Part shown: positions 24,357 through 64,000 of the stretch, in pieces
Numbering within the stretch: position 1 is the stretch's first letter
Layout: the number at the start of each line of letters is the position of its first letter
Source: a virus
Lineage: Duplodnaviria > Heunggongvirae > Uroviricota > Caudoviricetes
Reading direction: 5' to 3' (one strand)
Length of the DNA: 64,000 nucleotides
Virus record (IMG/VR): IMGVR_UViG_3300031993_000032
The notes under the pieces: model-generated
The model's input: only the letters and a program-made list of their open reading frames with translations
Databases searched by the model: none
What the model was told of the DNA's origin: nothing
Translations under genes and position numbers: made by a program

Positions 24357-25837
24357 TATATAAACTTACTTATGAATTGAAGTTAGTAGGATTTCTTCAG
24401 TTCTAAGAAAGAGTTTAGATGCCCTGAAGACGCTAAATCCTACACTAAGTGTCTTCGGGGCATTTCCTATTATATGATTACGACCGCCCAGAAAATAATG
24501 CTTATCGTAGACAAGAAGACTGCAAGTACGTTGAATCGTGCATGCGGTTGTGCTCGCTACGCATACAACTGGGCTAGGGACACCTGGTTTGCCAAGAAGG
24601 CTGCTGGCCATAAATCGGTGACGTGCGCGGAACTACGCAAAGAGTTCAACGAACAAAAGACTGATTGGATGTACGAGAGTCCCAAAGGCTCTATGGACCA
24701 AGCTATTAAGAACTTCGTTCTCGCCAAGAAACGGCATTACGAGAATCTTGAACTGTTCGGATTTCCCAAGCGTAAGAAATACAAGTCTAAGCGGTCATTC
24801 TACATAGAGAACGACAAGGCGAGGATAGTCGATCCTACTCGTGTCAAGTTGCCGTTAATCAAGCTTCCAGTCAGACTGGCGGAGCCAGTGCGGCTAGAAT
24901 GCCTATCTGGTAAGATAAACAACTTCGTTGTATCTAAGGGAAGCAACGACCGTTGGTACATCTCGATTTCCTATACTTACGATGACACTAATAGTTTGTA
25001 TGGAACTGGTGAGAATGGCCTTGTCGGTATAGACATAGGAGTTAAGACGCTGATGCAGTTATCGACAGGGGAATGCGTCGCCAATGAGCATATCAACAAG
25101 ACGCATTGCAAGCGACTTAGACGATATCAGAGGATGATGTCCCGCCGTAAGTATAATTCTACGCATTACAAGGACATCAAGAAGACTTTCAACAAGCAGA
25201 ATGCTTATATCAAGAACTTCAGAAAGGACTTGATACACAAGGCGACGACAGAGATTGTCAAGCACAATATGGTTGTCGCCATAGAGGACTTGAACGTCAA
25301 GGGAATGATGTCCAATCATAAGTTGGCGTCGGCGATTTCGGACTGCGGATTCGGCATGATCCGTAGGTTCCTTGAATACAAAAGTGCCAAGTACGGAACA
25401 TTACTTTTGAAGGTGAACCGATGGTTCCCATCCAGCAAAACTTGTTCCGGGTGTGGACATACGAAAGAAAAACTTTCATTGTCCGAACGAGAGTTCATCT
25501 GTGAGGAATGCGGACTGGTTATCGACCGAGATACTAACGCCGCAATCAATATCCTTGCAGAAGCCTTGTTCAATGAACTATATAAGAGATTCAATACCGA
25601 CATTGCCCGTCGGAAATTCACGCCAGCGGACTTGGTAGCTCTGGCCTCATCCCTTTCGGGATCTGGTGAACCTACCGAGGTCGATGCTCATTGCTTACTT
25701 ACCAGAGATGGTAGGGCGGCTATGGTGGACGATTTCTTCAATCGTCTATGGAATCAAGTTGCTATCGCAACCGTAAATCGCTATATTTAAGTCATAGACA
25801 ATTCCGTCTATACTTTTATATACATTTTATGAGGCAG
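24357..25837 (+). mobile_element. IS200/IS605-family element carrying only tnpB (copy 1); the left-end hairpin co-varies with copy 3
   Basis: Ends mapped by aligning this copy to the one at 56125-57591. About 90 percent protein identity between the two tnpB genes. Confidence 0.65.
24474..25790 (+). CDS. tnpB: TnpB (OrfB_IS605) RNA-guided nuclease-like protein, 438 aa
   Basis: RuvC motifs and a C-terminal CxxC...CxxC zinc finger (CSGCGH...CEECG...DRDTNAAINI). Confidence 0.85.
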   Translation: MITTAQKIMLIVDKKTASTLNRACGCARYAYNWARDTWFAKKAAGHKSVTCAELRKEFNEQKTDWMYESPKGSMDQAIKNFVLAKKRHYENLELFGFPKRKKYKSKRSFYIENDKARIVDPTRVKLPLIKLPVRLAEPVRLECLSGKINNFVVSKGSNDRWYISISYTYDDTNSLYGTGENGLVGIDIGVKTLMQLSTGECVANEHINKTHCKRLRRYQRMMSRRKYNSTHYKDIKKTFNKQNAYIKNFRKDLIHKATTEIVKHNMVVAIEDLNVKGMMSNHKLASAISDCGFGMIRRFLEYKSAKYGTLLLKVNRWFPSSKTCSGCGHTKEKLSLSEREFICEECGLVIDRDTNAAINILAEALFNELYKRFNTDIARRKFTPADLVALASSLSGSGEPTEVDAHCLLTRDGRAAMVDDFFNRLWNQVAIATVNRYI

Positions 25838-25845
25838 TACGTCCG

Positions 25846-26343
25846 GTGAGGCTGTTGATACCGATAATAGCGTTCTTGCTGTCCGGCATAGGGATATTCC
25901 GTTCCATACGTAGACGTGTGAGGTTCGTCATGAATCCGGGCTACAGGGGCTGGATCGACACCGACAGCATACCGCCACATAGGCTTGACGCCATGTACTT
26001 CTGCGTGGAGTACCTCGGAGTGAAGCACTACACGTTCACGAGGATGTACATGCCGAGGTGGATAGGGGACGTGTACATGGACAAGGTACGGTTCCGCATA
26101 AGGGACAACTACCGTACGGAGCTGAAGGGAGGCCGGATGTACGTGGAGTACGACGTTCCGAGGTGCGTGACGGTAGAGTGCAACGGCTACACGATGATCC
26201 GCGAGGAGCACCAGCTCGACACGTTCCTGAGGAAGAGCGGGGTACGGCAGCAGACCTTGATAGCGGTGATGAACGACTACAGGCGTACCATGTACCGTGA
26301 GCTGGTGAAGGACGGCATGATGAAGGAGAGCGACCTCAAGTGA
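25846..26343 (+). CDS. membrane-anchored protein, paralog 3 (GTG start immediately after the IS right end)
   Basis: ORF track. The GAGG in the IS terminal sequence lies 10 nt upstream of the GTG. Confidence 0.5.
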   Translation: MRLLIPIIAFLLSGIGIFRSIRRRVRFVMNPGYRGWIDTDSIPPHRLDAMYFCVEYLGVKHYTFTRMYMPRWIGDVYMDKVRFRIRDNYRTELKGGRMYVEYDVPRCVTVECNGYTMIREEHQLDTFLRKSGVRQQTLIAVMNDYRRTMYRELVKDGMMKESDLK

Positions 26344-26798
26344 AAAGATTTCTTTACATAGTGTACGGGCTGTTTGCTGCGGGTGCTGTACGGAAGTTCT
26401 GGAAGGACGTCGGTAAGCACCGGGAGTTCAAGGTGATGTGCAACCGGTACGACATGCGGAGCAGCTGGTTCAATGTGAAGCTGGTGTACGTGAGGGACAC
26501 TCTGATAGGGAGCAGCCGGATCGACGGCGGCAACGTGAAGCTTCGGCACTACATCGTGAGCGGGTACTTCCGTCGGTTCCGCTGCCGTGGTGCGAGCAGC
26601 AACGTCGACGTGATGTGCGAGCTAAGGAAGGCGATGGACATATATATCAAGAGGCACGGCGGACTTGCGAAGGGGATCGACTACAGTCTGGCACCGATGC
26701 CCGCCTACGTGGGCGGCGTGGAGTACCGTGGGAACAAGGGTCTTGAGGACTTCGACCTGGTCAAGGAAGCCTTCTACGGCATACCGAGGGAACTATGA
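26340..26798 (+). CDS. membrane-anchored protein, paralog 4
   Basis: ORF track. Start overlaps the upstream stop. Confidence 0.5.
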   Translation: MKRFLYIVYGLFAAGAVRKFWKDVGKHREFKVMCNRYDMRSSWFNVKLVYVRDTLIGSSRIDGGNVKLRHYIVSGYFRRFRCRGASSNVDVMCELRKAMDIYIKRHGGLAKGIDYSLAPMPAYVGGVEYRGNKGLEDFDLVKEAFYGIPREL

Positions 26799-27262
26799 GG
26801 TCGTTGCCGTGGCTGTTCTACATACTGGCCGGGGTTCTGGCGATAAGGGACTTCCTTGGGAAGGTGACCTCGCACATGAAGTTCCACACGCTTCTGAGGT
26901 CGTTCGGCAACGGCTACAGCAGCGTGGTGGCCGAGATCCATTACTGCGTGACTTACGACTACGTTGACGGATCGGGTCTGACCAAGCACTGCATAGAGAC
27001 CGTGAGGAGCGATCGTCAAAGGCTGTTCCGCATAAAGGGAGACTGGAGTCCGGAGACCGTGCTGCAGCTGGTCGAGTGCGAGCTTGTCCGACGGATCAAG
27101 CCCCGGTTCGACCTAGTCCATTCCGTGAGGGTACAACAGGCGACAAACATATCGGAATGGCATACACCGGTTTCCAAGGTGAAGTACGTGTCCGATGCGG
27201 TGAGGGACGAGATGCTGCGTATCGAGTTCGTGTTCATGGGGCTGCCGAGGAATGTCGGATGA
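26795..27262 (+). CDS. membrane-anchored protein, paralog 5
   Basis: ORF track. Start overlaps the upstream stop. Confidence 0.5.
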   Translation: MRSLPWLFYILAGVLAIRDFLGKVTSHMKFHTLLRSFGNGYSSVVAEIHYCVTYDYVDGSGLTKHCIETVRSDRQRLFRIKGDWSPETVLQLVECELVRRIKPRFDLVHSVRVQQATNISEWHTPVSKVKYVSDAVRDEMLRIEFVFMGLPRNVG

Positions 27263-27738
27263 GGTACTGGAAGGAGATAGCTTACTGTATCGCCGGGATA
27301 CTTGCGGTATGGCGGATGTCGAAGCTGAGCACGATCGACTTCATGCGCACGTACCACTGGAGAGGCGGAGTATGGTGGTTCCGGGTTGCGCTGATGTTCC
27401 GCAGTGGGGACGGAGGATTCCTGTACCGAATAAGGAAGTTCCGTGTGGCTCACATAATGTCTGCTGTCGGCGCATCCAACCACATCAAGGCGATGCTGCC
27501 CAAGGAACTGATCGAGGGTATCGACCGCAGCAGCGTATGGATCTGTATGGCCGATACCAACCAGGATCTGACCATGGACGACCTATACGACTTCTACGGT
27601 CTCGGCGACAAGGAAGCGTTCATGGCGAGTCTTGACTCACACGAAAGGTGGCTAGTCAACGAGGTCGGCAAGGCGTTCGACGAGCTTCCGGAGAAAATCG
27701 AGGTCAAGCAGCCGATACACCTTTTCCACAGGAACTAG
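27259..27738 (+). CDS. membrane-anchored protein, paralog 6
   Basis: ORF 27076..27738 trimmed to Met62 (ATGA overlap with the upstream gene). Confidence 0.5.
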   Translation: MRYWKEIAYCIAGILAVWRMSKLSTIDFMRTYHWRGGVWWFRVALMFRSGDGGFLYRIRKFRVAHIMSAVGASNHIKAMLPKELIEGIDRSSVWICMADTNQDLTMDDLYDFYGLGDKEAFMASLDSHERWLVNEVGKAFDELPEKIEVKQPIHLFHRN

Positions 27739-27740
27739 AA

Positions 27741-28268
27741 ATGATTAGGGCGATAGGTTTCGTATTTTATTCCGTATTTGCCGTGCTTGCCTTCAAGCGA
27801 ATGGTTAGGAACATCCGACAGTTCCGCAGCAACTACATATCCAAGCGTACATGCAGTCCGCACGTGGTCAAGGTACACGTCCGTCTTCTGGTGACCGTGG
27901 CAAGGACTGCGTACATACTTAGCGAGCGAACGATCCTCATACAGGCGTTCCCCAAGATCGCAAACTTCAATATCGTGATCGACGATGAGTTCCGCAAGAA
28001 GACGTCGAGGTTCGTTCTGGAGAAGCTCTGCCGGATATACAACGTTCGGTTCGGAGACCACTACGAGTTCCGTTGCTACATTTCCGCATATACAAGGAAG
28101 TGCGAGGACGACACTGCCGTGATTGCGACCGCACTTAAGGCCATGCACCACACGAAGGAGGCTTTCTTGCTCAAGTACCCTAAGTACCGTGCGGATATCG
28201 AGAGGATCGTGGACTGGTTCGAACACGAGTCGCTTTCCGACCCGGTGACGATGGAGAAGATGCCATGA
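27741..28268 (+). CDS. membrane-anchored protein, paralog 7
   Basis: ORF 27648..28268 trimmed to Met32. Confidence 0.5.
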   Translation: MIRAIGFVFYSVFAVLAFKRMVRNIRQFRSNYISKRTCSPHVVKVHVRLLVTVARTAYILSERTILIQAFPKIANFNIVIDDEFRKKTSRFVLEKLCRIYNVRFGDHYEFRCYISAYTRKCEDDTAVIATALKAMHHTKEAFLLKYPKYRADIERIVDWFEHESLSDPVTMEKMP

Positions 28269-28789: not shown

Positions 28790-28843
28790 GAAAAAGGCGA
28801 CCGATTTCTCGGTCGTCTTTTGGTATGTCGGCAAAGAAACCTC

Positions 28844-40742: not shown

Positions 40743-40868
40743 GGCGCGAAATATAGTAAAGATTTATAACAAACTAACTTATATTTTGTTTATTTTTGCC
40801 ACGGGTTGCCAAACATACACTCATTTGCTATATTACATGGAAACTTAATCTTTAACAAGGACTATTCA

Positions 40869-42215
40869 ATGGCAGTCAAAGTCTCCGAAAAAACGATTGC
40901 GAGGGCAAAGCAGCCTTGTCGCACCGTTTGCAAGCGTCGTGCTGTCGGCGTAACGGCAAACAAGCAGTATCAGCGCAAGAACAAAGACCAGTGGTTCGTC
41001 ACGCATCTCACCAAGACCGATACTTACAAGTTCGGCATGTGTCAAGCGGTCTTCCACAAGCATCCGAACGAACGTGCCTACTGGGAATTCAAGCTCCGTT
41101 CTGATGGCGTCGACCTGACTCCGTACTACGACGAAATCAACAAGGAACTCGATCACCTTTGCACACTCAAGTTTACTGAATGGGAACTCGAAGGCATTCG
41201 CCGTGTTATGCCTTGGCTGTCCGACGACTTCATCGAATGGCTTGCCGACTTCCAGCTCAAGCGCAAGTACATCCACGTCGACTATGATGCTACTCGCAAC
41301 GGCGGTCTCCACATCTGGGCTGAAGGCCCCGCAATCCAAGTTACCTGGTTTGAAATCTATGTTCTGAAGATTATCCAGAACCTCTTCTTCGACGATCTCG
41401 AAATCGACTGGGAAGAATCCAAGAAGACACTCAACGAATCTATCGCAAAGTGGAACGCAGCTCTCCGCCGTGGCGTCAAGTTCACGATCTCTGACTTCGG
41501 TGTCCGCCGTTCCGTGTCCGACGAATGGAACGAATACATGGTTCAGACCATGATCGACTTCTGCCCCGCTTTTGTGGGCACTTCCAACGTGTACCTTGCC
41601 ATCAAGCTAGGCTGCAAGGCTATTGGTACTTTTGCCCATGAAATGTACGCACTGTATCAAGGCATTGACGACATTCCGCTTCACCTTGTGCAGAAGAAAG
41701 TTCTCGAAGACTGGTCTGACGAATTCCGTGGCGACCTCGGTATTGCGCTTTCCGACAACTTTGGCTTCAATGCATTCTTGCGTGATTTCGATAAGTATTA
41801 CGCCAAGCTGTTCGACGGTTGCCGTCACGACTCTGGCGACCCGTATGTCTGGGGCGAAATGCTTATCGCTCACTACACCAAGAACGGCATCAATTCCAAG
41901 AGCAAGGTAGGCTGCTGGTCTGACAGCCTCAACTGCGACCAGTCCATCGCTATCGCCGAACGCTTCCACACTCGTATCAACGTGGCATTCGGTATCGGCG
42001 GCTTCCTCGCTTGCAAGGTGCTCCGCTTCAAGGGTGGCATCAAGCGTGACGCTCTCCGCATGATCATGAAGCTTGTCATGTCCAACGGCAAGTACGCCGT
42101 GAAGCTCTCCGACTCTCCGGGCAAGGTCAACTGTCCTGACCCGAAGGTGATTGAACGTGCGAAGGACGCATACCATTACGAACCAATTGCAGAAAACAAG
42201 GACGCTTTGGATTAA
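40869..42215 (+). CDS. pncB: nicotinate phosphoribosyltransferase
   Basis: Collinear matches to PncB: DTYKFGMCQAVFH, FGVRRSVS...FVGTSNVYLA, GIALSDNFGFNAFLRDF, CRHDSGDPYVWGE, VKLSDSPGKVNCPD. Trimmed to Met22 after AAGGA. Confidence 0.85.
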   Translation: MAVKVSEKTIARAKQPCRTVCKRRAVGVTANKQYQRKNKDQWFVTHLTKTDTYKFGMCQAVFHKHPNERAYWEFKLRSDGVDLTPYYDEINKELDHLCTLKFTEWELEGIRRVMPWLSDDFIEWLADFQLKRKYIHVDYDATRNGGLHIWAEGPAIQVTWFEIYVLKIIQNLFFDDLEIDWEESKKTLNESIAKWNAALRRGVKFTISDFGVRRSVSDEWNEYMVQTMIDFCPAFVGTSNVYLAIKLGCKAIGTFAHEMYALYQGIDDIPLHLVQKKVLEDWSDEFRGDLGIALSDNFGFNAFLRDFDKYYAKLFDGCRHDSGDPYVWGEMLIAHYTKNGINSKSKVGCWSDSLNCDQSIAIAERFHTRINVAFGIGGFLACKVLRFKGGIKRDALRMIMKLVMSNGKYAVKLSDSPGKVNCPDPKVIERAKDAYHYEPIAENKDALD

Positions 42216-42217
42216 AG

Positions 42218-42862
42218 ATGAAAGTACTCGAACTATTTGCTGGCGAACGTTGCATTGGCAAGGCATTTGAACGTGCTGGCCATGAGGTATATTCAGTAGA
42301 CTGGGACAAAATCCATCCAAATATCGACTGGTATACAGATATTTCTAAAGTGACTGCTCAAGATATCCTTGAACGGTTTGGGCATCCGGACGTTATTTGG
42401 ATGAGTCCGGATTGCACAACGTATTCAGTCGCCGCAATTTCTTATCATCGAACCAATGTAAATGGCGAATTGCAGCCAAAAACTGAATATGCAAAATTTT
42501 GTGATGCACTTAATGTGCATTGTAATGAACTGATTAAAGAGTTAAGTCCATCGTTATGGTTTAGGGAAAATCCACGAGGTGGCATGCGCAAAATGTCATT
42601 TGTTGCTGGATTGCCTAGATATACCGTAACATACTGTCAATACGGCGATACGAGGCAAAAGCCAACAGACATTTGGACCAACCATCCGAATCCTAATTTT
42701 TTGCCACCATGTAAACCGGGTTCACCTTGCCATGAAGCGGCCCCTCGTGGCAGCCGTACCGGTACTCAAGGACGTGCTGGCCATGTTATGCGGTCATTAA
42801 TTCCAGATAATCTATGCGATCATATCGTCAAAATTTGTGAAGAATATATGGGTGTCAAATGA
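42218..42862 (+). CDS. minimal C5-cytosine-methyltransferase-like protein (214 aa; motifs I LELFAG, IV SPDC, VI FRENP; no obvious TRD)
   Basis: Motif order read by eye. Sits between pncB and nadD. Confidence 0.4.
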   Translation: MKVLELFAGERCIGKAFERAGHEVYSVDWDKIHPNIDWYTDISKVTAQDILERFGHPDVIWMSPDCTTYSVAAISYHRTNVNGELQPKTEYAKFCDALNVHCNELIKELSPSLWFRENPRGGMRKMSFVAGLPRYTVTYCQYGDTRQKPTDIWTNHPNPNFLPPCKPGSPCHEAAPRGSRTGTQGRAGHVMRSLIPDNLCDHIVKICEEYMGVK

Positions 42863-43284
42863 AGAAGGTGTACATCTACGGCGGAGCATTCGACCCGGTA
42901 ACGACTGCGCACACCGCCATTATTACCGAACTGCTCAGCCGACTCAAGAAGGAACCTGATTCCCTCTTGTACATCTTGGTTAGTGACAACGATACGAAGA
43001 ATTACAAGGTCGAATGCGAAGACCGCATGGCGATGATCGTCCATACGGTCAATTCGCTCCACAGCTTGTATTCTGACACGTCCGATTCTCCGGCTGCATA
43101 CAATCAAGGCGAACCGTCCGAAATCTTCCACCGTGTGAAGATTGTCGACGAAGTGAGCCGTACAGCTGAAGCCCTGCAGAATCTCCGCAAGGATACCAGC
43201 TTGACTGATGCTACATTCACGCTGGTTCTCGGCACTGACGAATGGCAGTCGCTGTTGACCAAACAATGGGCTGTTAACAGCTAA
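42859..43284 (+). CDS. nadD: NadD-like nicotinate/nicotinamide mononucleotide adenylyltransferase, short (141 aa; lacks the C-terminal third of canonical NadD)
   Basis: GGAFDPVTTAH nucleotidyltransferase motif. LVLGTDEWQSL block. ATGA overlap with the upstream gene. Confidence 0.55.
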   Translation: MKKVYIYGGAFDPVTTAHTAIITELLSRLKKEPDSLLYILVSDNDTKNYKVECEDRMAMIVHTVNSLHSLYSDTSDSPAAYNQGEPSEIFHRVKIVDEVSRTAEALQNLRKDTSLTDATFTLVLGTDEWQSLLTKQWAVNS

Positions 43285-43439
43285 CCTAAATTCTACCGAA
43301 TTCTACTCAAATCTACTTAGAATTATAATCAATTTGATAAGATTTTATGTTGACAATCGGCATAAAATTTTGTACATGGTTATAAACTTGTGATATAAAG
43401 GTTCGATGAATTAGTGCAATTCTTCATTGAATCCAAGTA

Positions 43440-45260
43440 AGAAAACATTTATGATGGCTCGTTTGGAGTTGAATTGCACAATAAATTCCGAACGAGCCAT
43501 GTCTGTATTGTATGAGTAAGCACTGTTGGACATTGAAGGATAGGTACGAGTCGCATTTCTCCGCTGCGTTCTATCCTATGTATTTGTCCGACACCAAGCG
43601 TGCCGAAATCATCCATCGTGCCGAGGAAATCCGTTCTGTACGGAACGATATATCCGACGTGTTCTTCTCTGATATGCTCGGCTTCCAAGACATGAGCAAG
43701 TTTGATGCATACAAGTATTTCATTCCCATATTTAATACAAGACTATGTAGTCATTACTTGAAGACGGCAATCGAGGATGTGTGGAAGGCATACCAGTTAA
43801 GATTTGGTGCCATCCGAAAGAAGATTGAGTTCGTCAAGGTAGAAGAGCTTGTGCCGTCCTTCTACAAGATCAATTCTTATGGGCATAAAAAGGGCGAACT
43901 AAAATCCATAGAACGGCATACCAAGAAGACTGAACTATCGAAAGTACTGACCTGGCTTTCCAGATATGGAAAGGACGAATCCGTTTACTGGCTAGAATCC
44001 GTTATTCCTAATGCAGAAGAAACCAAGCAAAAGTTTTACCGCACTATACTGGATAAGATAAGGAAGTTCGGATTCGACCGCCTCATGCGGTTGGCCTTAT
44101 TCCGTAGGAAAGCTGTATATGCGAAGTATATCGCACGAGGGAAGATTACCTTTGAATCTCTCACATTCTCTGGCCGCAGTCGTATTAAGCGTCCTATCGT
44201 GGATGCCAGAAGGAACGATACCGGCAAGTTCGACTACTTCATCGAGATTTCTTGGGACTGGTTCAACCGGGCATACCATGGGCCTAGTGATCATACGCTG
44301 TGCATCCCGATCAAGTACAACAAGGCATATCACAAATCATTACAAAGATACTGCAATGGACCGGATACGTCCTATACAATCGTAATTCGCGGCAAAGACA
44401 TCCACGTAGTTCTTGCCCGTGACGGCTACCGTTACAAGAGCGATGAAAAAATTACCGAGGAGAATACGGTTGGTATAGACGTCAATTCCAAGCACAATAT
44501 GTTCGCCTTGAGTAACGGGGAGTTCATTCCGCATGACGAGGAAATGATTGCTGAACTAGAAGACGAACTGCTGAAAATTGATACCAAGCAGAAGAACTAC
44601 GATGCTAGGTTCAATGACGCTGAGGAGCATGACGCATTCAAGATTTCACGTAAGGACAAGAAACGAATAGAAGCAATCACAGTGAAGCTGAACGCATCCA
44701 ACAAGCGTAGAATAGCTGCAATGTGCAAGGATCTTGCTGAACGTGGATTCAAGCACATCGTGATGGAGAACCTTACCGGGTTTCAAGGAAGCAAACTCAA
44801 TGCCGATGACAAGAAAGGATTTAACCTCGGTAGGTTGCATCTACGTATAGGATTGTCCTCGTTAAAAGACGATGTAGAACATATATCGGCACATTATGGA
44901 CTGGGATTTTCACTCGTCCAGCCAGAATATACCTCGAAGATGTGCCCGGAATGCGGTGGAATAGATGACCGTAACCGTCAGACTCAGGAAGATTTCAAGT
45001 GTGTGTACTGCTTGCATACAGACAATGCAGACCACAACAGTGCGATTAACATCAAGTTCCGCCTTACCTCGACCGTGTTAAGAGGGAACTTGCTCGAAAG
45101 GGTAGGGGATAGCGGATATAGGTACTTTCAGCCAAAGAGCTTGTTCAGGTGGCAAGTAAGGAAGTGCCTAGAAAAATGTCGTTGCAATGGTCTGTTCAAA
45201 CGGACTATAGGAAATCACGAAAGACTTACCATAAGTAAGTTTGAGTAGATTTCAGTCAAC
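43440..45260 (+). mobile_element. second, distinct IS605-family tnpB element (approximate ends); left-end inverted repeat ATGGCTCGTT/AACGAGCCAT at 43452-43500
   Basis: TnpB ORF plus the left-end hairpin. The right end must lie within a few nt of the tnpB stop, because pncA homology resumes at about 45265. Confidence 0.45.
43512..45248 (+). CDS. tnpB: large TnpB-like protein (578 aa; RuvC-I VGIDVN, RuvC-II MENL, RuvC-III NADHNSAINI, zinc finger CPECGG...CVYC)
   Basis: Motifs read by eye. Confidence 0.8.
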   Translation: MSKHCWTLKDRYESHFSAAFYPMYLSDTKRAEIIHRAEEIRSVRNDISDVFFSDMLGFQDMSKFDAYKYFIPIFNTRLCSHYLKTAIEDVWKAYQLRFGAIRKKIEFVKVEELVPSFYKINSYGHKKGELKSIERHTKKTELSKVLTWLSRYGKDESVYWLESVIPNAEETKQKFYRTILDKIRKFGFDRLMRLALFRRKAVYAKYIARGKITFESLTFSGRSRIKRPIVDARRNDTGKFDYFIEISWDWFNRAYHGPSDHTLCIPIKYNKAYHKSLQRYCNGPDTSYTIVIRGKDIHVVLARDGYRYKSDEKITEENTVGIDVNSKHNMFALSNGEFIPHDEEMIAELEDELLKIDTKQKNYDARFNDAEEHDAFKISRKDKKRIEAITVKLNASNKRRIAAMCKDLAERGFKHIVMENLTGFQGSKLNADDKKGFNLGRLHLRIGLSSLKDDVEHISAHYGLGFSLVQPEYTSKMCPECGGIDDRNRQTQEDFKCVYCLHTDNADHNSAINIKFRLTSTVLRGNLLERVGDSGYRYFQPKSLFRWQVRKCLEKCRCNGLFKRTIGNHERLTISKFE

Positions 45261-45264
45261 GGCG

Positions 45265-45543
45265 AAGTACTTCCTCAGCGACGACGCTTTCAACGCCGAT
45301 GGTTCTCTCAAGAGCCAGGAAGAGCTCGCAAAGCTCGGCAAGGAACGCATTGGCCGTATCCGCCTCGTTGGTACTTGCACCGACATCTGCGTCATTTCCA
45401 ACGCAATGATCCTCCGTGCGATGTTCAAGGATACTCCTATCGAAATCGTGGAATACGCTTGTGCCGCTACTCCTGGAGCACAGGATGCAGCAATCCTCGT
45501 CATGGAACGTTGCGGATTCACGATTATCCGTGAAGCTGCCTAA
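45265..45543 (+). pseudogene. pncA: C-terminal fragment (about 90 aa) of a nicotinamidase/isochorismatase (PncA-like), 5'-truncated at the tnpB element
   Basis: RIRLVGTCTDICVISNA...VEYACAA matches the PncA catalytic-Cys region. The ORF begins inside the tnpB 3' end. No N-terminal half was found anywhere upstream. Confidence 0.5.
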
Positions 45544-55500: not shown

Positions 55501-55669
55501 TGTCGGCGAGTTCACTGAGTCGACTGTAGGACTCGTCGCCGAATGACAGTTCTTGGGTTTCTTCGACATCTTCGGGCTCCTCAATAATAGATTCATCTTG
55601 CTCTTCAATGAGCTCGTTCTCGTTTTCAGCTTCCAGTTCGTTATACTCGATCGGTTTCTTCTTTGCCAT
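55484..55669 (-). CDS. small highly acidic protein (61 aa)
   Basis: ORF track. GAGGT RBS. Confidence 0.5.
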   Translation of the reverse strand: MAKKKPIEYNELEAENENELIEEQDESIIEEPEDVEETQELSFGDESYSRLSELADNDEWN

Positions 55670-56117
55670 TTTGCTTACCTCGTGCGTCGTCTCGCATAGC
55701 CGTCAGAATTGACGTTACGGTTTCATTCTTGTTTATCACTAGCAAAGAAACTAAGTATTCCAGATCGAAGACAAACAAGTACTTTCCGTTTTCTTCATAG
55801 GCAAATTCGTCTGTATCGGTAACATACTGCATACCGAAATCGGTCATTTCCTTCGACAAGGTAGCCATGAACTCCTTGTCATCGATCTTCGCCTTGACCG
55901 CCAGCGTATGGGCAACATTCTTCATCATTTCACCCATAATTGCCCGTACCTTGGCCAAGTCATACGTCTTGCTGACATCGTTGGTCAACCAAGGAACGCT
56001 GAACTCGATGTTCGGTTCGCACTCACGGTAGACCATCAAGTTACGGTCTTCGTCATAGTCGAACAAGTTATTCTCGAACAGCCGTATCACGCTGCTGCTA
56101 TTTATCATCGTCGCCAT
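55641..56117 (-). CDS. hypothetical protein (158 aa); its RBS is supplied by the IS right-end terminal sequence
   Basis: ORF track. GAGGCAGGA lies 11 nt upstream of the ATG. Confidence 0.5.
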   Translation of the reverse strand: MATMINSSSVIRLFENNLFDYDEDRNLMVYRECEPNIEFSVPWLTNDVSKTYDLAKVRAIMGEMMKNVAHTLAVKAKIDDKEFMATLSKEMTDFGMQYVTDTDEFAYEENGKYLFVFDLEYLVSLLVINKNETVTSILTAMRDDARGKQNGKEETDRV

Positions 56118-56124
56118 TTATATC

Positions 56125-57591
56125 CTGCCTCATAAAATGTATATAAAGGTATAGATGACCTAAATATAGCAATTTACGGTTGCGTTAGCAACTTGGTTCC
56201 ATAGACGATTAAAGAAATCGTCCACCATAGCCATCCTACCATCTCTGGTAAGTAGGCGATGAGCATCAACCTCGGTAGTTTCACCAGTTCCCGAAAGGGA
56301 AGAGGCCAGAGCTACCAAGTCCGCTGGTGTGAATTTCCGACGGGCAATGTCGGTATTAAAACGATTATTTAGTTCAATGAACAAGGCTTCGGCAAGGATA
56401 TTGATGGCGGCATTGGTATCCCTATCGATAACCAGACCACATTTCTCGCAGACATACTCTCGTTCGGACAATGAAAGTTTTTCTTTCACATGCCCACAAC
56501 CGGAACATTTCTTTGACGACGGGAAGAACCGTCCGACTTTTAAGAGCAATGTTCCGTACTTGGCACTCTTGTATTCTAGGAACCTACGAATCATGCCGAA
56601 TCCGCAGTCAGAAATGACCGACGCCAACTTGTGGTTGGTCATCATTCCCTTTACATTCAAGTCCTCTATGGCGACAACCATGTTATGCTTAACGATTTCT
56701 GTCGTCGCCTTGTGTATCAAGTCCTTTCTGAAGTTCTTGATATAGGTATTCGTCTTATTAAACGTCTTCTTGATATCCTTGTAATGTACTGAATTGTACT
56801 TCCGGCGGGACATCATCCTCTGATATCTCTTTAGTCGCTTATAATGCCTCTTGTTGATATGCTCGTTAGCGACACATTCGCCGGTAGACAGCTGCATCAG
56901 CGTCTTAACGCCCATATCTATGCCGACAAGACCGTTAACATCTGTTCCGTACAAACGTTGGGTGTCATCGTAAGTATAGGATATCGAGATGTACCAACGG
57001 TCGTTGCTTCCTTTGGATATAACGAAGTTGTTTATCTTACCGGATAGGCATTCGTACCGTACTGGCTCCGCCAGTCTGACTGGAAGCTTGATTAACGGCA
57101 ACTTGATATGAATAGGATCGACAATCCTAGCATGGTCGTTCTCTATGTAGAACGAACGCTTAGACTTGTATTTCTTTCGCTTGGGAAAGCCGAACAGATC
57201 TGGATTCTCGTAATGCCGTTTCTTGGCTAGAACGAAGTTCTTGATGGCTTGATTCATAGAGCCTTTGGGACTCTCGTACATCCAGTCAGTCTTTTGTTCG
57301 TTGAATTCCTTGCGGAGTTCCGCACACGTCACCGATTTCTGGCCAGCAGCTTTCTTGGCAAACCAGGTATCCCTAGCCCAGTTATATGCGTAGCGAGCAC
57401 AACCGCATGCTCGGTTCAATGCGCTTGCTGTCTTGCTATCGACTATCAACATTATTTTCTGGGCTGTACTTATCATACACACAAGAAATGCCCCGGTAAC
57501 GCCTATTGTGGTATTTAACGTTACCGGAGCACCGAAAACTCTTCAATTAGAACAAGAAATACCACTAACTTATTCTATAACGAAGTTTATA
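56125..57591 (-). mobile_element. IS200/IS605-family tnpB-only element, copy 3 (inverted relative to copy 1, about 10 percent diverged)
   Basis: Ends mapped by aligning this copy to 24357-25837. Compensatory left-end hairpin GCTCCGGTAACG/CGTTACCGGGGC versus GCCCTGAAGAC/GTCTTCGGGGC. Confidence 0.65.
56160..57476 (-). CDS. tnpB: TnpB (OrfB_IS605), 438 aa
   Basis: About 90 percent identical to the 24474..25790 product. Trimmed to the ATG matching the copy-1 start. Confidence 0.85.
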   Translation of the reverse strand: MISTAQKIMLIVDSKTASALNRACGCARYAYNWARDTWFAKKAAGQKSVTCAELRKEFNEQKTDWMYESPKGSMNQAIKNFVLAKKRHYENPDLFGFPKRKKYKSKRSFYIENDHARIVDPIHIKLPLIKLPVRLAEPVRYECLSGKINNFVISKGSNDRWYISISYTYDDTQRLYGTDVNGLVGIDMGVKTLMQLSTGECVANEHINKRHYKRLKRYQRMMSRRKYNSVHYKDIKKTFNKTNTYIKNFRKDLIHKATTEIVKHNMVVAIEDLNVKGMMTNHKLASVISDCGFGMIRRFLEYKSAKYGTLLLKVGRFFPSSKKCSGCGHVKEKLSLSEREYVCEKCGLVIDRDTNAAINILAEALFIELNNRFNTDIARRKFTPADLVALASSLSGTGETTEVDAHRLLTRDGRMAMVDDFFNRLWNQVANATVNCYI

Positions 57592-57672
57592 GCATTCGCA
57601 TCTTGAATTCATGCGGTGTTCATGAAAAGGCTGTTATTTTTTATTTACAATTCAATACATTCATATATTGTT

Positions 57673-58155
57673 TCAGCTACTAGATACAATCTCCAAATTG
57701 CTAAGTTCGTTCTCGATACGCTTTCCATCAAATATACATTCATCACGATTTTCACGCAAGGCAAGTTCCTTCGCCAGCGTACGGATATTCACCATCTGCG
57801 CCTTCATGTCGAACAAGTCCGGAACCTTCTTATTATATGCGTTTTCGTAATCGGTGCACAGCTTGCCCATAAGGGGCCCGTAGATACATTCGATTGACCG
57901 CGTGTACTGCCGGTGAAGCTCGTCGATCTTCTTCTCGAATGCACGCAGCTGGGCAGCAATCTTGATATAGCCAACAACAGAATTTTCATCCATTGTGTAG
58001 TGAACTCTTGGAAGATCAATTTTCACATCGGACTGAATCTCGTTGTCCGGCGTATCGTCGTTATCAAACTTCATGTCAAGCGAAATCGACAACGGCGTAA
58101 TCTTCTTCCGCTTTGCAGCACGGATCAGCTGCAGCAAGTCATTGTCATTTCTCAT
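57673..58155 (-). CDS. hypothetical protein (160 aa)
   Basis: ORF track. AAAGGAAG RBS. ATGA coupling to the sigma gene. Confidence 0.55.
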   Translation of the reverse strand: MRNDNDLLQLIRAAKRKKITPLSISLDMKFDNDDTPDNEIQSDVKIDLPRVHYTMDENSVVGYIKIAAQLRAFEKKIDELHRQYTRSIECIYGPLMGKLCTDYENAYNKKVPDLFDMKAQMVNIRTLAKELALRENRDECIFDGKRIENELSNLEIVSSS

Positions 58156-59960: not shown

Positions 59961-59966
59961 ATTCAA

Positions 59967-59995: not shown

Positions 59996-60075
59996 CAGGT
60001 TTATTAAATTTTACATGCAAAAAGACGGCGGTCTTTCGACCACCGTCCCAGGACACAAACCAACAAAAAACTCGA

Positions 60076-60231: not shown

Positions 60232-60290
60232 GATGAATTCCTCTATGTTTGATATTGAGAATATAGCAATATATCCACCGCTTGGCAAGA

Positions 60291-60530
60291 CTATTTTTTC
60301 TCGTCTTCCAAGGCTGCCTTCATGAACTCTTCCGCAGTAGCGTCAAGGGCTGGATTCCTCAATGTCATTACAATGTCCTCGACCACACGTCCAATAATAG
60401 CCTCCATCTGCGTAGCCAAGAACACTTCTACTGGGTCGTTACTGTTATTCGCAATAATTCCCATACGATTCAAGGTGGCATTAACTTCATCAAATACAAT
60501 AGATTTCCTAAGTTCTTCTTTCTGAGCCAT
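60291..60530 (-). CDS. hypothetical protein
   Basis: ORF track. Confidence 0.45.
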   Translation of the reverse strand: MAQKEELRKSIVFDEVNATLNRMGIIANNSNDPVEVFLATQMEAIIGRVVEDIVMTLRNPALDATAEEFMKAALEDEKK

Positions 60531-60535
60531 AATTA

Positions 60536-60862
60536 CTACTTGCTCCTGTCATTCCAGCCAACCACGATCTTGCCAGTATCCCCTTCACGAGTGGCAAATG
60601 CGTTGTGATTGTGCATGGCCGACATAATCAGTTCATCATTATCCGTATACGACTGGATAATTTCAAGTGCGGAAAACTTGTCCATCAAGGTAAGCTCGGT
60701 ATCCATCGGAATATCAACCGTCTCGAACTTCCTTATACGGATAGATCCGTCCGGATGATATTCCGTATACGTGGCGGTGGACATGTCGAATTCATCTCGC
60801 CATGTGCTGGACACGCACATCTGGTACAGCATGTTGTCGACGGTAAATTTCGGCTTATCCAT
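60536..60862 (-). CDS. hypothetical protein
   Basis: ORF track. TAATG coupling. Confidence 0.5.
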   Translation of the reverse strand: MDKPKFTVDNMLYQMCVSSTWRDEFDMSTATYTEYHPDGSIRIRKFETVDIPMDTELTLMDKFSALEIIQSYTDNDELIMSAMHNHNAFATREGDTGKIVVGWNDRSK

Positions 60863-61200
60863 TATCCAACCATCGCCTTGTAAAGTTCAAACATCGCCAC
60901 CACGGTTCCGTCATCTGATTCGAATCTCACGAAATCGTCGTGACTAGTCAGTACAGCCCCAGTTACTTCTTTGTACTGGTCGGACATTCTGGAGACTGCG
61001 GCTTTCTTCGTCGGATGGTAAGTCGTAATGGACTTTACGACGGTCTGTCCGTCCTCTATCGTCCTAACTTTCGATTCAAGAACATACGTAGCCTTGCAAG
61101 CCTTGACGTGCGCCATTGTCTGGGCAATCTTATCTACAGACTTGCTGGCTTCCGCTAATTCTCGCTTGACTGAATCTTTATTTTTTGACATCGCTAACAT
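60862..61200 (-). CDS. hypothetical protein (start may be Met4 at 61191)
   Basis: ORF track. Confidence 0.45.
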   Translation of the reverse strand: MLAMSKNKDSVKRELAEASKSVDKIAQTMAHVKACKATYVLESKVRTIEDGQTVVKSITTYHPTKKAAVSRMSDQYKEVTGAVLTSHDDFVRFESDDGTVVAMFELYKAMVG

Positions 61201-61480
61201 CCGTTGGTTTAGGTGAAATCAGACCAATATCGGTCAACCACTTGACGTAATTGCCTTGGAACGGGGTCAATTCGCCGTCCTTCATAGCCTTTCTTACACA
61301 TTGACACAAAGTACACAACGATCGTTCAAGTTCAATTCCCCTGGCAAAATCCGGATCATAGTTCAATCCGTCCTCGACCGATGCCTTGGCGTCCATTGCG
61401 TCCTCAAAGGTAGCTGACATGATGGCACGCATGAGACCATGCATCGTAATCGAGTCTAATCTGTCTAATGGCATACTCAT
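61178..61480 (-). CDS. hypothetical protein
   Basis: ATG 7 nt after the TATATT of promoter 61488-61516 (TTGCCG-N17-TATATT). Confidence 0.5.
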   Translation of the reverse strand: MSMPLDRLDSITMHGLMRAIMSATFEDAMDAKASVEDGLNYDPDFARGIELERSLCTLCQCVRKAMKDGELTPFQGNYVKWLTDIGLISPKPTDVSDVKK

Positions 61481-61487
61481 GGCTCAA

Positions 61488-61516
61488 AATATAGTAAACA
61501 ATGCTTTAAACGGCAA
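61488..61516 (-). promoter_or_regulatory. sigma-70-type promoter TTGCCG-N17-TATATT, leaderless
   Basis: Read directly from the sequence. Confidence 0.55.
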
Positions 61517-61566
61517 CAATCAAGGAAAAAGTTATAAACTCCGTGTAAATCAGTCTGGTTGTTAAT

Positions 61567-63597
61567 ATGACTAATCAAGAGCGTTTTCACTGGTTCGATG
61601 TATACCTAGAATCAATCGAAGGACTAAGTCCGTCCATCAAGAAACCCATTTCTCAGCTCGCTCGCTGCGTGTTCGAGGCTGAAACCGGAATCGACGTAAG
61701 TAATGCCCCAGTCGACGTTGCTGACATTCTGGGAATTCAAAATGTAATTGATACTATCAGCGATAGCATCGACAACAAGAAACCGCTTCCAAAAGATATC
61801 GTACAGCAGATCAACGACCTTACGTACGCCATCGACAAGCTCCAAAACTCCAACGACTTGAAGAACTTGGATACGTCTGCGGCTAAGGCTGCCATCAACA
61901 CATTCGCAAATACGAAGCCGATGATCGATAACCTCAATCGAGAACTGGCTGACCTCAAGCGTCAATATAGTGGACTAAACCGCAACATGGATCCGCAGAA
62001 GCTCCGGGAATTGAGCGAACAAGTAGCTACCATCAACAATACGAAACGTATGCTTGATGCCATCGGCAAGCCGTATGACCAGCTCAAGTCACACTTGGAT
62101 ATGCTTGATCAAGCAATCAACAATGCCAAGCATGATGAACGCAATCTCAACTATCGTCAGCATGAGTTCGACCAGTTTGTAAAGAACAAGGAGATCGACG
62201 ATCAGCGTATGGCAAGTAAACGCCAAGCTGCGCGTGATAACGCCAGCCAGGAAAAGGCGGCATCGGCTAATGCAGAAAAGGATATCAATACTTCTGCAAC
62301 ACCAAAAGCCGATATTTCAAAATTGTTCACCAAGCCGGAAGAAAAACTGTCTCCACAAGAACAAGCTCTAGTAGACATGAAGACCGCCATTACCGATGCC
62401 GTTAGCGCAAATGGCACTGCAAGCATAACTGAATTCCTTCCTTCTATCGACGAGTTCTTGACCAACGTAAAGAATTGTAGCGCCGGTAATTACGCTGATA
62501 TGGATAATCTTGATCAGCAAGGTCAAGCAATCAAGACACAGCTGGCTACCTTTATTGATACATGTAAGAAATACTTAGGCGACCAAGACTTCCAAGATGT
62601 ACTGCATAACGTAACTACAGAACAGCTTCGTAACAGCATTACAGAACACGGAATCGATATTAACGAGGCCGAGGATATTAATGAAGAGCTCGGCGAGATA
62701 AATGGACAAATTGATGTTATCAATCAGTCCATAGCTGGTCACATGGGTCAACTCAATGCAATGAAACGTGCAGCTCACATCAATGAATTTAAAGATGGCG
62801 TCAATGCCGATGAATTCGCTACAGAAAATGAGGATCTACTGAATGCTCTACAAGTAGATAAAGATACTCTGCGCCAGTATCAAGTAGAGACTAATAACTT
62901 GAACAATATCTTGCATGCATTCGACACTATCAAGGTGATCATGTCTGGTTGTGACTGGCTTGACAATGTTGCCCACCCTACAATCAAGAAGTTCCAAGCC
63001 AAGCGTGAGGCTGACCGCAACAACTATCTGTCCTCTCTCAAGACGACGCCAGAAACATTTGTAACCGATCTCCAAGATCGCCTCAATGCAATCATCACGG
63101 CAACCGCAGCTCAATCGGACAATATCCGTAATATGTACAAGGCGATTATCGGACAGAACCGTGATGCAAATCTCGGCACAAAGATGACCGTCAAGCGCAA
63201 GATCCACGACTGGGGTCTTAAAGTTGATACTTCGTTGTTCGTAACCGACAAGAATACCGGTAATTTCTTGTTCCGTGGCGAAGGCGTGAACATTCCGATC
63301 CGTATCGCTTACGAAATGGCTACCAATGGAGTCACTTTGTCTGGTAACGGCAATACCGTCGATCTGAATGAGCATGCCTCCATCAAGAACGGCGAAGCAT
63401 TCTCGGAACACTGGAAAATCCAGTTTACCCAAACAGAAGCTACCAAGTCTAGCGCAGACGGTGTGTCGATTACTGCTTCGTTTGACTCAGCAATCAACCA
63501 AGAAACCGTTCTCATGACTCGTGCAAGCATTGACGACATTATTCAGAACGCTTTCTATCAAGTGCTCAAGCTGCTGCCGAACGTCAAGCAGATCTAA
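61567..63597 (+). CDS. large coiled-coil-rich hypothetical protein (676 aa); candidate virion, scaffold or tape-measure-like protein
   Basis: ORF track. No SD. Strong terminator at 63620-63650. Confidence 0.55.
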   Translation: MTNQERFHWFDVYLESIEGLSPSIKKPISQLARCVFEAETGIDVSNAPVDVADILGIQNVIDTISDSIDNKKPLPKDIVQQINDLTYAIDKLQNSNDLKNLDTSAAKAAINTFANTKPMIDNLNRELADLKRQYSGLNRNMDPQKLRELSEQVATINNTKRMLDAIGKPYDQLKSHLDMLDQAINNAKHDERNLNYRQHEFDQFVKNKEIDDQRMASKRQAARDNASQEKAASANAEKDINTSATPKADISKLFTKPEEKLSPQEQALVDMKTAITDAVSANGTASITEFLPSIDEFLTNVKNCSAGNYADMDNLDQQGQAIKTQLATFIDTCKKYLGDQDFQDVLHNVTTEQLRNSITEHGIDINEAEDINEELGEINGQIDVINQSIAGHMGQLNAMKRAAHINEFKDGVNADEFATENEDLLNALQVDKDTLRQYQVETNNLNNILHAFDTIKVIMSGCDWLDNVAHPTIKKFQAKREADRNNYLSSLKTTPETFVTDLQDRLNAIITATAAQSDNIRNMYKAIIGQNRDANLGTKMTVKRKIHDWGLKVDTSLFVTDKNTGNFLFRGEGVNIPIRIAYEMATNGVTLSGNGNTVDLNEHASIKNGEAFSEHWKIQFTQTEATKSSADGVSITASFDSAINQETVLMTRASIDDIIQNAFYQVLKLLPNVKQI

Positions 63598-63619
63598 TTG
63601 GGCATCTAATACGAAATTA

Positions 63620-63650
63620 AGCTCACTCATGCCAAATGAGTGAGTTTTCT
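63620..63650. terminator. terminator GCTCACTCATGCCAAATGAGTGAG + T-run (also the 3' end of the fourth tnpB element)
   Basis: Read directly from the sequence. Confidence 0.6.
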
Positions 63651-63671
63651 TTTTGGTGAACTACGCACCGC

Positions 63672-64000
63672 CTAAAGGCGGTGAGCTTCGCGTTGTGTAT
63701 CATTGTTTCCCGCGCCTTTAACCGCAGTCCCTGCGGCGATTAATCTTTTCCCTTCAGAAAGGATGTTGATGGCGGCATTGACGTCACGGTCGTGAGACGT
63801 GCCGCACTGCGGGCACGTCCACGACCTTATTTTCAAGTCCTTGGTCAACGAATTCTTGAACCCACAGCAGTGACATAGCTGAGACGAGGGGAACCATCGT
63901 CCGACGCGGACGATGGTTCTGCCGTACCATTCAGCCTTGTACTGTAGTTTGTTCAGGAACATCCTCCAGGCTGTGTCATGCTCGGACTTCGCGTGGTCGC
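63672..64000 (-). CDS. tnpB: TnpB C-terminal part (fourth tnpB; gene continues beyond the window)
   Basis: VRVGRWFPSSQLCHCCG...CPQCG...DRDVNAAINI motifs. Reading frame stays open to the window edge. Terminal hairpin CACCGCC-TAAAG-GCGGTG spans the stop. Confidence 0.7.
   Translation of the reverse strand, partial: DHAKSEHDTAWRMFLNKLQYKAEWYGRTIVRVGRWFPSSQLCHCCGFKNSLTKDLKIRSWTCPQCGTSHDRDVNAAINILSEGKRLIAAGTAVKGAGNNDTQREAHRL

Follow-up and report, generated by a model that had tools for sequence, protein, structure and literature searches.

tnpB elements inserted after Shine-Dalgarno motifs in a phage genome fragment, with a candidate substitute ribosome-binding site at their right end

INTRODUCTION

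Insertion sequences (ISs) that encode the RNA-guided nuclease TnpB are common in phages, and TnpB systems take their guide from the flank 3' of the element's right end (PMC10690162, PMC11061315). The target-adjacent motif (TAM) of IS607 TnpBs is AGGAG in 18 of 22 strains (PMC11061315), and one of these systems, ISFba1 (Ren et al. 2024, PMC11061315; PDB 8IAZ), has a serine-recombinase partner encoded by tnpA, which is often lost or decayed, and a RAGATH-18-derived guide RNA encoded at the tnpB 3' end and right end. CboIStron, an IS607 element of Clostridia (Zedaveinyte et al., PMC10690162), has a TAM, TGGG, that matches the recombinase target and a right end, TCGG, that carries the same core and differs at position -3, which avoids self-cleavage; its group I intron splices the element from mRNA and limits harm to the interrupted host gene. 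ISDra2 TnpB, from the IS200-IS605 group (Karvelis et al. 2021, PMC8612924; PDB 8BF8, 8H1J), is associated with a Y1 transposase, an AT-rich TAM (TTGAT), and subterminal hairpins at both ends. Also comparable are ISs whose ends send expression signals into adjacent genes and the free-standing homing endonucleases of T4-like phages, nucleases that could cut an element-free allele in co-infection and spread by repair (PMC13565253). Here we analyze four tnpB elements, numbered copies 1 to 4, in the 64,000-nucleotide (nt) Caudoviricetes record IMGVR_UViG_3300031993_000032 of IMG/VR, the whole of which is called the window below.

The best overall explanation, to which we assign a probability of roughly three in four, is that all four are tnpB elements without tnpA and that copies 1 and 3 target the Shine-Dalgarno (SD) sequence of phage genes and hand back a substitute. 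Copies 1 and 3 resemble ISFba1 in that relatives carry a serine recombinase, the predicted guide RNA lies at the tnpB 3' end and right end, and the predicted TAM is essentially identical (HGGAG, against AGGAG); they differ in having a distinct 245-nt fold and a 438-amino-acid (aa) protein, and in belonging to a lineage found only in phage and metagenome contigs. The report on ISFba1 (PMC11061315) makes no mention of a ribosome-binding site (RBS) and does not describe elements that lie systematically between an SD and a start codon and bring a substitute SD. The left/right motif pairs in the window, GGAG/GCAG for copies 1 and 3 and NGGG/ACGG for copy 2, recall the position -3 difference of CboIStron, whereas the core of copies 1 and 3 is AG and not GG. 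CboIStron and copies 1 and 3 would each have a built-in device limiting harm to the interrupted host gene: splicing in the former, and in the latter, as we propose, insertion after the SD with a replacement SD and stop codons in the element ends. Domain order, catalytic motifs, and an omega-RNA overlapping the tnpB 3' end are held in common with ISDra2. The element end would act on the adjacent gene as in ISs with outward signals, and the nuclease could act as T4-like homing endonucleases do, except that the signal would be an RBS replacing the one targeted and recognition would be RNA guided.

RESULTS AND DISCUSSION

The four TnpB-type genes that a first-pass annotation of the window had reported were recovered by Pfam and tblastn and fall into three unrelated families; the elements are real mobile elements of three kinds.

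24474-25790, plus strand: tnpB copy 1, 438 aa; Pfam HTH_OrfB_IS605, OrfB_IS605, and Cas12f1-like_TNB
43512-45248, plus strand: tnpB copy 2, 578 aa; Pfam TNB domain only
56160-57476, minus strand: tnpB copy 3, 438 aa from the ATG aligned with copy 1 (the open reading frame [ORF] opens at GTG 57482); same three Pfam domains as copy 1
63675-64000, minus strand: tnpB copy 4, a C-terminal TnpB fragment that continues beyond the window (tblastn)

Insertion after Shine-Dalgarno motifs

Both ends of copies 1 and 3 could be placed by comparison with each other and with relatives.

24291..25837, plus strand: copy 1 element, IS607 family without tnpA, 1547 nt; boundaries ±2 nt
56125..57690, minus strand: copy 3 element, IS607 family without tnpA, 1566 nt, subtype B
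24287..24290, plus strand: GGAG at the copy 1 left end, host phage SD core and TAM-like target motif
57691..57694, minus strand: GGAG at the copy 3 left end, host SD core and TAM, on the basis of the empty site described below

Similarity of copy 1 to copy 3 and to two IMG/VR relatives (L001 and L003) extends from 24287 to 25837 and stops abruptly; because AG stands at both junctions (GGAG at the left, GGCAG at the right), the boundaries carry an uncertainty of 2 nt. On the right, similarity ends after ...TTTTATGAGGCAG at 25837 and 56125, just where the first-pass annotation had placed it. Its left ends, 24357 and 57591, fell 66 and 99 nt short: similarity between the copies and to their relatives continues to the base after GGAG, at 24291 and 57690, across an indel of ~31 nt (an insert in the copy 3 left end relative to the other subtype) that separates two subtypes. 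The aligned ends thus reach beyond the tnpB ORF borders, and these are ISs with defined ends, as had been assumed.

Among 17 independent left junctions of this family, GGAG (15) or GGAT (2) directly abuts the element, and position -5 is A in 9, T in 5, C in 3, and G in none. Judged from these flanks, the target and TAM of copies 1 and 3 would be about HGGAG, i.e., the SD core, and the TAM-like motif that had been expected beside the right end lies beside the left end instead.

An empty site for copy 3 was recovered in L014, a syntenic 348-kb contig with the same three genes and without the element. It reads ..CTTGACGGAG / GAACCCAATGGCAGTAATGA (near the junction, ..ACGGAG / GAACCCAATG), against ..CAATTTGGAG / 1566 nt / GATATAAATGGCGACGATGA in the window. 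Because the empty site contains GGAG, this motif belongs to the host phage; there is no target duplication, and GGAG lies 7 nt before the downstream ATG. The reconstructed copy 1 site is GGAG + TACGTCCG + GTG, with 8 nt between GGAG and GTG, and the upstream ORF would end at a TGA overlapping the GTG, a typical coupled operon junction. Both elements therefore adjoin a host GGAG on its 3' side, 7 to 8 nt before the neighbor's start codon. In both, the upstream ORF now extends into the left end for 5 codons before terminating. All three frames are closed by stops within the first 18 nt of copy 1, and two of three are closed within the same distance in copy 3.

Certain results weigh against this account. 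The copy 3 site is the only empty site recovered. None was found for copy 1, for which both flanking genes are without relatives in IMG/VR and a search of 5.8 billion proteins gave no homologue of the downstream protein beyond 99% identity. Contigs encoding the exact neighbor proteins were all occupied or broken inside the element, and no insertion polymorphism was seen within the population. Several metagenome contigs with identical neighbor proteins (L182, L183, L185, and L186) end inside the omega-RNA/right-end region; since repeats break assemblies, insertion polymorphism may be hidden. We also rejected homologous cargo as an explanation of the genes upstream of the two copies (BLASTP E = 1.7); the stretch that they have in common is the element left end.

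A pattern scan recovered the right-end terminus with recognizable upstream sequence in 23 independent copies on viral and metagenome contigs; of the 45 matches in metagenomes, about half were due to chance and were discarded by eye. The same DNA pattern gave 12 matches in 185,579 bacterial and archaeal species genomes, all of them chance matches at ordinary RBS-like sequences, and a nucleotide search with copy 1 against cultured phages gave none. Copies 1 and 3 thus appear to represent a lineage seen only in phage and metagenome contigs so far.

Three IMG/VR loci (L018, L024, and L022/L023) hold noncoding elements of ~450 nt, made up of a left end, an omega-RNA-like region with an extra hairpin, and a right end, that sit after AGGAG or TGGAG and are nonautonomous derivatives; no cognate tnpB was found for their subfamily. 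L022/L023 and L056 have homologous downstream genes (ATGATAGAACGTCGTTTACC...), and in each case an element lies 8 nt before the ATG. The two elements come from separate subfamilies, one being a 495-nt nonautonomous element and the other a full tnpB element, which suggests that one site was used repeatedly or that the element was replaced there.

A candidate substitute ribosome-binding site

25832..25835, plus strand: GAGG of copy 1, in the invariant terminus ATGAGGCAG; proposed substitute SD

The corresponding GAGG of copy 3 is at 56130-56127 on the minus strand. It had been claimed that this motif lies 10 to 11 nt upstream of the neighbor's start codon; the distance is 10 nt in both copies (GTG 25846 and ATG 56117). 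The right-end terminus, AUGAGGCAG, is kept in 23/23 family members. At 15 of 24 independent right junctions, an ATG or GTG 3 to 9 nt past the end begins an ORF that is 60 aa or longer or that leaves the contig after 20 codons or more. Against this rate of 62%, the background in the same contigs is 13% at all GGAG sites (P = 2e-8), 30% for AGGAG (P = 1e-3), and 43% for AAGGAG. Start-codon offsets cluster at 5 to 9 nt, the canonical SD spacing for the original GGAG, and the insertion targets were therefore working SD sites. After insertion, that GGAG is 1.5 kb away, and the nearest purine-rich motif is the right-end GAGG, 3 nt further from the start than the original. One locus, L020, retains a solo right-end remnant, the last ~60 nt of a right end like that of the ~450-nt derivatives, exactly between a stop codon and the next ATG.

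The earlier proposal that the IS supplies an RBS to its neighbor accordingly has strong comparative support, and we regard an outward RBS as likely but unproven. Some of the adjacency is simply to be expected if the TAM is the SD itself. The alternative is that the match is a by-product: GGAG would be targeted for no other reason than its recognition by the recombinase and TnpB, GAGGCAG would be conserved solely as the recombinase crossover and the 3' end of the omega-RNA, and the neighboring genes would be translated poorly or by other means. Invariance of GAGGCAG could indeed be owed wholly to TnpA or omega-RNA constraints, given that it persists even at the 9 of 24 right junctions not beside a start codon, and the backgrounds at AGGAG and AAGGAG sites show that adjacency is partly expected from the TAM alone. 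The case for a substitute SD is further weakened by the 10-nt spacing, longer than optimal, by the recognizable SD in only about one-third to one-half of the long ORFs of the window, and by the copy-2 family, the right end of which has no RBS-type pattern. Yet adjacency exceeds the AGGAG background, insertion takes away the only SD of downstream genes that are nevertheless intact, and the L020 remnant has been kept exactly as an intergenic RBS region. On balance, we consider a mere by-product possible and somewhat doubtful, and we retain the reading in which copies 1 and 3 target an SD and return one. No description of an RBS link of TnpB elements was found in the searched literature, which does not prove novelty; the link, together with the substitute site that the right end carries, seems to be reported here for the first time.

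An outward sigma-70-like site (TTGCTA, 17 nt, TGcTATATT) lies ~50 nt before the right end, at 25759-25787 on the plus strand and 56191-56163 on the minus strand, and is kept in the main subfamily. Its conservation indicates that the element might also supply a promoter; a scan of the elements for sigma-70 promoters and terminators gave counts not above chance.

Guide RNA and nuclease of copies 1 and 3

25593..25837, plus strand: predicted omega-RNA scaffold of copy 1, 245 nt; overlaps the last 66 tnpB codons and ends at the right end
56125..56357, minus strand: predicted omega-RNA scaffold of copy 3, 233 nt; without the last small hairpin
25838..25857, plus strand: putative guide/target of copy 1; covers GTG 25846 of the membrane-paralogue gene 25846-26343
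56105..56124, minus strand: putative guide/target of copy 3; covers ATG 56117-56115 of gene 55641-56117

The expectation that the right ends encode omega-RNA was borne out by a covarying fold. RNAalifold on 23 sequences from three subfamilies gave 43 pairs, 24 of them with compensatory changes; with one added hairpin there are 49 pairs in 11 helices, 26 pairs having double changes. Pairing holds in 94.7% of cells, against 23 to 49% in slid controls, and 0/500 shuffles reach the observed value. The last ~245 nt are also more conserved than the rest of tnpB (synonymous divergence [dS] 0.18 versus 0.67). These patterns point to a structured guide RNA, the predicted omega-RNA, encoded at the tnpB 3' end and right end. 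Existing covariance models, which had been suggested as the means of finding it, do not: Rfam returned no omega-RNA for the whole window at gathering thresholds or for each element at permissive E values, only chance snoRNA and miRNA matches, and the predicted scaffold constitutes a new family outside Rfam. The guides were placed by position, as the flank 3' of the right end, with an assumed length of 16 to 20 nt. That of copy 1 coincides with the 5' end of a membrane paralogue, as had been noted from the sequence, and independent gene callers also start that gene at GTG 25846.

Copies 1 and 3 form a 1323-nt inverted repeat of 87% nucleotide identity plus a 31-nt arm at 97%, and their TnpBs are 90.4% identical, in agreement with an earlier estimate of two inverted copies about 10% diverged. 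Over codons 1 to 370, dS is 0.67 and the ratio of nonsynonymous to synonymous divergence (dN/dS) is 0.088. The left ends represent two subtypes, each with nearer relatives in other phage contigs, and the copies are not recent duplicates. The divergence values show strong purifying selection on tnpB, with the nuclease site intact: in copy 1, GIDIG, AIEDLN, and DRDTNAAINI align to the catalytic motifs of the ISDra2-like solved nuclease, and the RuvC D/E/D motifs and zinc finger are intact. In copy 2, GIDVN, VMENL, NADHNSAINI, and CxxC pairs are visible by eye in the translation.

We propose the following mechanism. A serine-recombinase TnpA acting in trans would insert the element at GGAG by exchange across AG. 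TnpB with its omega-RNA would cut unoccupied alleles (HGGAG plus the neighbor's translation-initiation region), at replication or in co-infection, and recombinational repair of the cut allele would copy the element in, by homing or as retention. The right-end GGCAG, which mimics the TAM and differs at position -3, would leave the occupied site protected, and the right-end GAGG would take over as the RBS of the displaced gene, making insertion within phage operons tolerable.

Copy 2 and the loss of NAD-salvage genes

43271..45262, plus strand: copy 2 element, IS607-like with a putative GG core; TAM TGGG at 43267-43270; right end ..TTTCAGTCAACGG
42859..43284, plus strand: truncated cytidylyltransferase-like (NMNAT-like) gene, Pfam CTP_transf_like; last codons and stop from the copy 2 left end
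45241..45543, plus strand: 3' remnant of an isochorismatase/nicotinamidase-like gene, right of copy 2; Pfam Isochorismatase profile positions 107-171 of 175 only

The single large and distinct copy of the first-pass annotation is copy 2, whose 578-aa TnpB forms a family of its own. Its similarity to 17 IMG/VR relatives runs from ~43266-43277 to 45262. Left junctions of the copy-2 family follow NGGG in 11/11 alignable cases, right ends read ..CAACGG(T), and copy 2 itself has GG at both junctions, with a right end of ..ACGG. From these flanks, copy 2 appears to follow IS607-like end logic, with a GG core and an NGGG TAM. The right-end hairpins co-vary by eye, and IS607-like elements of Twort-like Staphylococcus phages have a similar right end, accompanied in one of them by a MerR-like remnant ORF.

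Copy 2 lies in an NAD-salvage cluster (40806-45543) that encodes an NAPRTase, the cytidylyltransferase/NMNAT-like protein, and the isochorismatase/nicotinamidase-like protein. In a related contig, L087, TGGG occurs at both points that flank copy 2 in the window (at the isochorismatase point, TGGG / CGAAGTACTTCC), with 1.1 kb more DNA between them. There the homologue of the truncated cytidylyltransferase-like gene encodes 398 aa and extends beyond the truncation point, and the extra 1.1 kb contains the rest of this cytidylyltransferase-domain protein plus the 5' part of the isochorismatase/nicotinamidase-like gene. We therefore associate copy 2 with loss of the DNA between two TGGG sites, a deletion by which two NAD-salvage genes were truncated. 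The putative guide of copy 2 matches the intact L087 nicotinamidase gene at 19/20 positions, beside TGGG. Within the same cluster, the ORF 42218-42862 (214 aa, weak C-5 DNA methylase match) has no counterpart in the otherwise collinear L087, in which the NAPRTase gene and the next gene overlap directly; window positions 42226-42857 are a one-gene indel.

This guide match bears on a second alternative, that the TnpBs have been domesticated, as in TldR, have ceased to serve mobility, and act as RNA-guided regulators or as phage weapons, for instance by repression or cutting at the translation-initiation regions of related phages. Loss of tnpA, strong purifying selection, insertions fixed in all sampled contigs, and guides covering the start regions of neighboring genes would all suit such a role. 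Unlike in TldR, however, the RuvC and zinc-finger motifs are intact; copies 1 and 3 have full mobile ends, the family occupies many unrelated sites in different phages, and its nonautonomous derivatives are typical of active selfish elements. Moreover, the putative guide of copy 3 has no match to the L014 allele. We judge domestication to be improbable and continue to treat copies 1 and 3 as selfish SD-targeting elements.

A structured tnpB leader

24374..24465, plus strand: structured 5' leader of tnpB copy 1; minimum-free-energy fold with two hairpins plus a loop-loop helix
57487..57577, minus strand: structured 5' leader of tnpB copy 3; two hairpins plus the loop-loop helix GTGGTATTT/AAATACCAC

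A hairpin had been reported to keep its pairing between copies 1 and 3 (GCCCTGAAGAC/GTCTTCGGGGC versus GCTCCGGTAACG/CGTTACCGGGGC). It is real, and it is hairpin 2 of a larger fold. In copy 1, hairpin 1 (24374-24403) and hairpin 2 (24417-24465) are joined by a 9-bp loop-loop helix (24386-24394 with 24435-24443), which in subtype A is GTAGGATTT/AAATCCTAC and in subtype B the helix listed for copy 3; hairpin 1 is present in both subtypes in a shifted register. Pairing holds in 98.9% of cells (slid controls, ~45%). Compensatory double changes affect seven pairs, including two of the loop-loop helix, and essentially represent one split between the two subtypes. The reported hairpin lies ~125 to 175 nt inside the element; the fold as a whole stands directly before a tnpB ATG that has no SD and is missing from tnpA-containing relatives. 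Given this internal position in the tnpB 5' leader, the idea of a terminal transposase hairpin was rejected, as was a hammerhead-like fold (the core CUGAUGA/GAAA is absent by eye, and there is no Rfam match). We can only speculate that the leader limits tnpB translation from read-through transcripts or marks a processing site.

Family assignment

As had been observed, no tnpA accompanies any of the elements: a tblastn search found no homologue of the family's serine recombinase in the window, and a Pfam scan found no transposase in flanking ORFs, although no dedicated Y1 transposase search was made over the whole window. Relatives are more informative. L016/L041 and L061 carry a 209-aa ORF (Pfam HTH_17 and Resolvase) that overlaps the start of a 68%-identical tnpB and have the same right end; L061 is inserted after AAGGAG and L016 after AAGGAT. 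These loci have the architecture of IS607, and we file copies 1 and 3 under IS607 because relatives this close carry a serine-recombinase tnpA. The absence of terminal inverted repeats and of target-site duplication, the 2-bp core common to target and end, and the G-rich TAM (HGGAG at 17/17 junctions, counting two GGAT) agree with that family, for which AGGAG, GAGGG, and TGGG are published TAMs (PMC11061315, PMC10690162). Its GG core is replaced by AG, inserted after GGAG; the same may be true of elements for which the AGGAG TAM was published. Rfam found neither a group I intron (Intron_gpI) nor another ribozyme in the window or the elements, and the left end is only ~185 nt long, so that IStron features are not seen.

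Some evidence weighs against the IS607 assignment and against present activity. The best solved-structure match of the copy 1/3 TnpB is ISDra2 TnpB (E = 3.5e-42, 148 bits), of IS605, compared with 121 bits to ISFba1 TnpB (8IAZ), of IS607. RAGATH-18 was found by Rfam neither in the window at the gathering threshold nor in the elements at E <= 10 or E <= 5. With the family's tnpA missing from the window, current mobility is unproven.

The first-pass view that the elements are IS1341-like (IS200/IS605, with a Y1 transposase recognizing the left hairpin as DNA) draws on the lack of tnpA in the window and on a TnpB slightly nearer to that of ISDra2, and, barring a Y1 transposase that acts on these ends, it is already refuted for copies 1 to 3 by their G-rich flanks, by the dinucleotide common to target and right end, by the serine recombinase of copy 1/3 relatives, by the internal position of the covarying hairpin near the tnpB start and its absence from tnpA-containing relatives, by the lack of a conserved matching right-end hairpin and of that stretch in copy 3, and by the failure to find an AT-rich flank or conserved end hairpins in these three copies. 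It probably holds for copy 4 only.

63656..64000, minus strand: copy 4, IS605-like tnpB element truncated by the window end, right part only; right end ..GCGTAGTTCAC at 63656

Relatives of copy 4 (L101-L113, 76 to 96% identity) diverge directly after GTAGTTCAC, and their left ends follow the AT-rich AGTTTAT and carry a subterminal hairpin. Copy 4 is probably an IS605-like member of IS200/IS605 whose own left end lies outside the window. Although described initially as partial, it is cut by the window edge only, and full-length relatives exist.

The window looks like a fragment of a giant phage, since relatives of the elements and of flanking genes are on IMG/VR contigs of 105 to 355 kb. It also encodes a sigma factor, tRNA-maturation enzymes, and NAD-salvage genes, and most of its ORFs have no match in PHROGs. 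The density of tnpB genes had been called unusual for a phage; tnpB homologues occur in 312 cultured-phage records. In each of four related giant-phage contigs (IMG/VR 3300031993_000006, 3300012007_000009, 3300037512_000782, and 2061766007_004163), two or three of these tnpB families are represented, with one pair of copy-2-type elements ~1 kb apart, and multiple tnpB elements per genome are thus typical of this phage group.

Implications

The AGGAG TAM of IS607 TnpBs and the frequency of TnpB in phages were known already. What seems to be new is the combination of a lineage encountered only on phage and metagenome contigs, a core of AG, insertion sites between an SD and a start codon, element ends that bring stop codons and a substitute SD, an omega-RNA without an Rfam family, and a kissing-loop leader. 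IS607 TnpBs with an AGGAG TAM are in development as genome editors, and the biological meaning of this TAM is not discussed in PMC11061315; the phage copies suggest one, namely, that the TAM is a ribosome-binding site. A spare RBS and stops in the ends would let a 1.5-kb selfish element sit cheaply in packed phage operons, and SD targeting would be a second solution, besides IStron splicing, for hiding a transposon in a gene-dense genome. Further gains are the omega-RNA scaffold family, the compact structured leader RNA, and a natural example, in a phage NAD-salvage cluster, of gene loss associated with an IS.

A more far-reaching scenario, which we offer tentatively, is that a phage IS607 lineage evolved for life in operons, with the SD as target and TAM and a substitute SD returned, with an RNA in a dual role, and with a weapon for homing or for exclusion of rival phages. 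If so, the same ~30 nt of RNA would be both omega-RNA 3' end plus guide and translation-initiation region of the neighbor, TnpB binding or processing of the transcript would trade off against neighbor expression, much like the intron/guide conflict of the IStron, and the nuclease would be an RNA-guided weapon aimed at the start regions of rival phages' genes in co-infection.

Additional features of the window

An intergenic repeat of 50 to 75 nt occurs in at least 22 copies between 780 and 22660 (e.g., 9141-9216 and 12703-12778). On the minus strand, a hairpin whose conserved loop is GGGACTGCC precedes TTATTCCCTTTATACAAACC and AAGGAG; the arrangement resembles a terminator or processing site joined to a phage promoter/RBS cassette and stands before almost every gene of the block. 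GAGGCAG, the 7-nt terminus of the tnpB elements, also occurs in the plus-strand core of this repeat. At 6929-7054 on the minus strand, Rfam gives a tRNA match (37.9 bits) that contains two large insertions, one of 48 nt and one of 18 nt, and that may be an interrupted or intron-bearing tRNA; ARAGORN found no tRNA in the window. The gene downstream of copy 1 belongs to a membrane-paralogue family (23257-23745, 23883-24308, 25846-26343, 26340-26798, 26795-27262, and others) with an N-terminal transmembrane helix in common. Upstream of two of these genes lies a 47-nt direct repeat (23107-23153 and 23770-23816, 87% identity) that is probably a common regulatory region.

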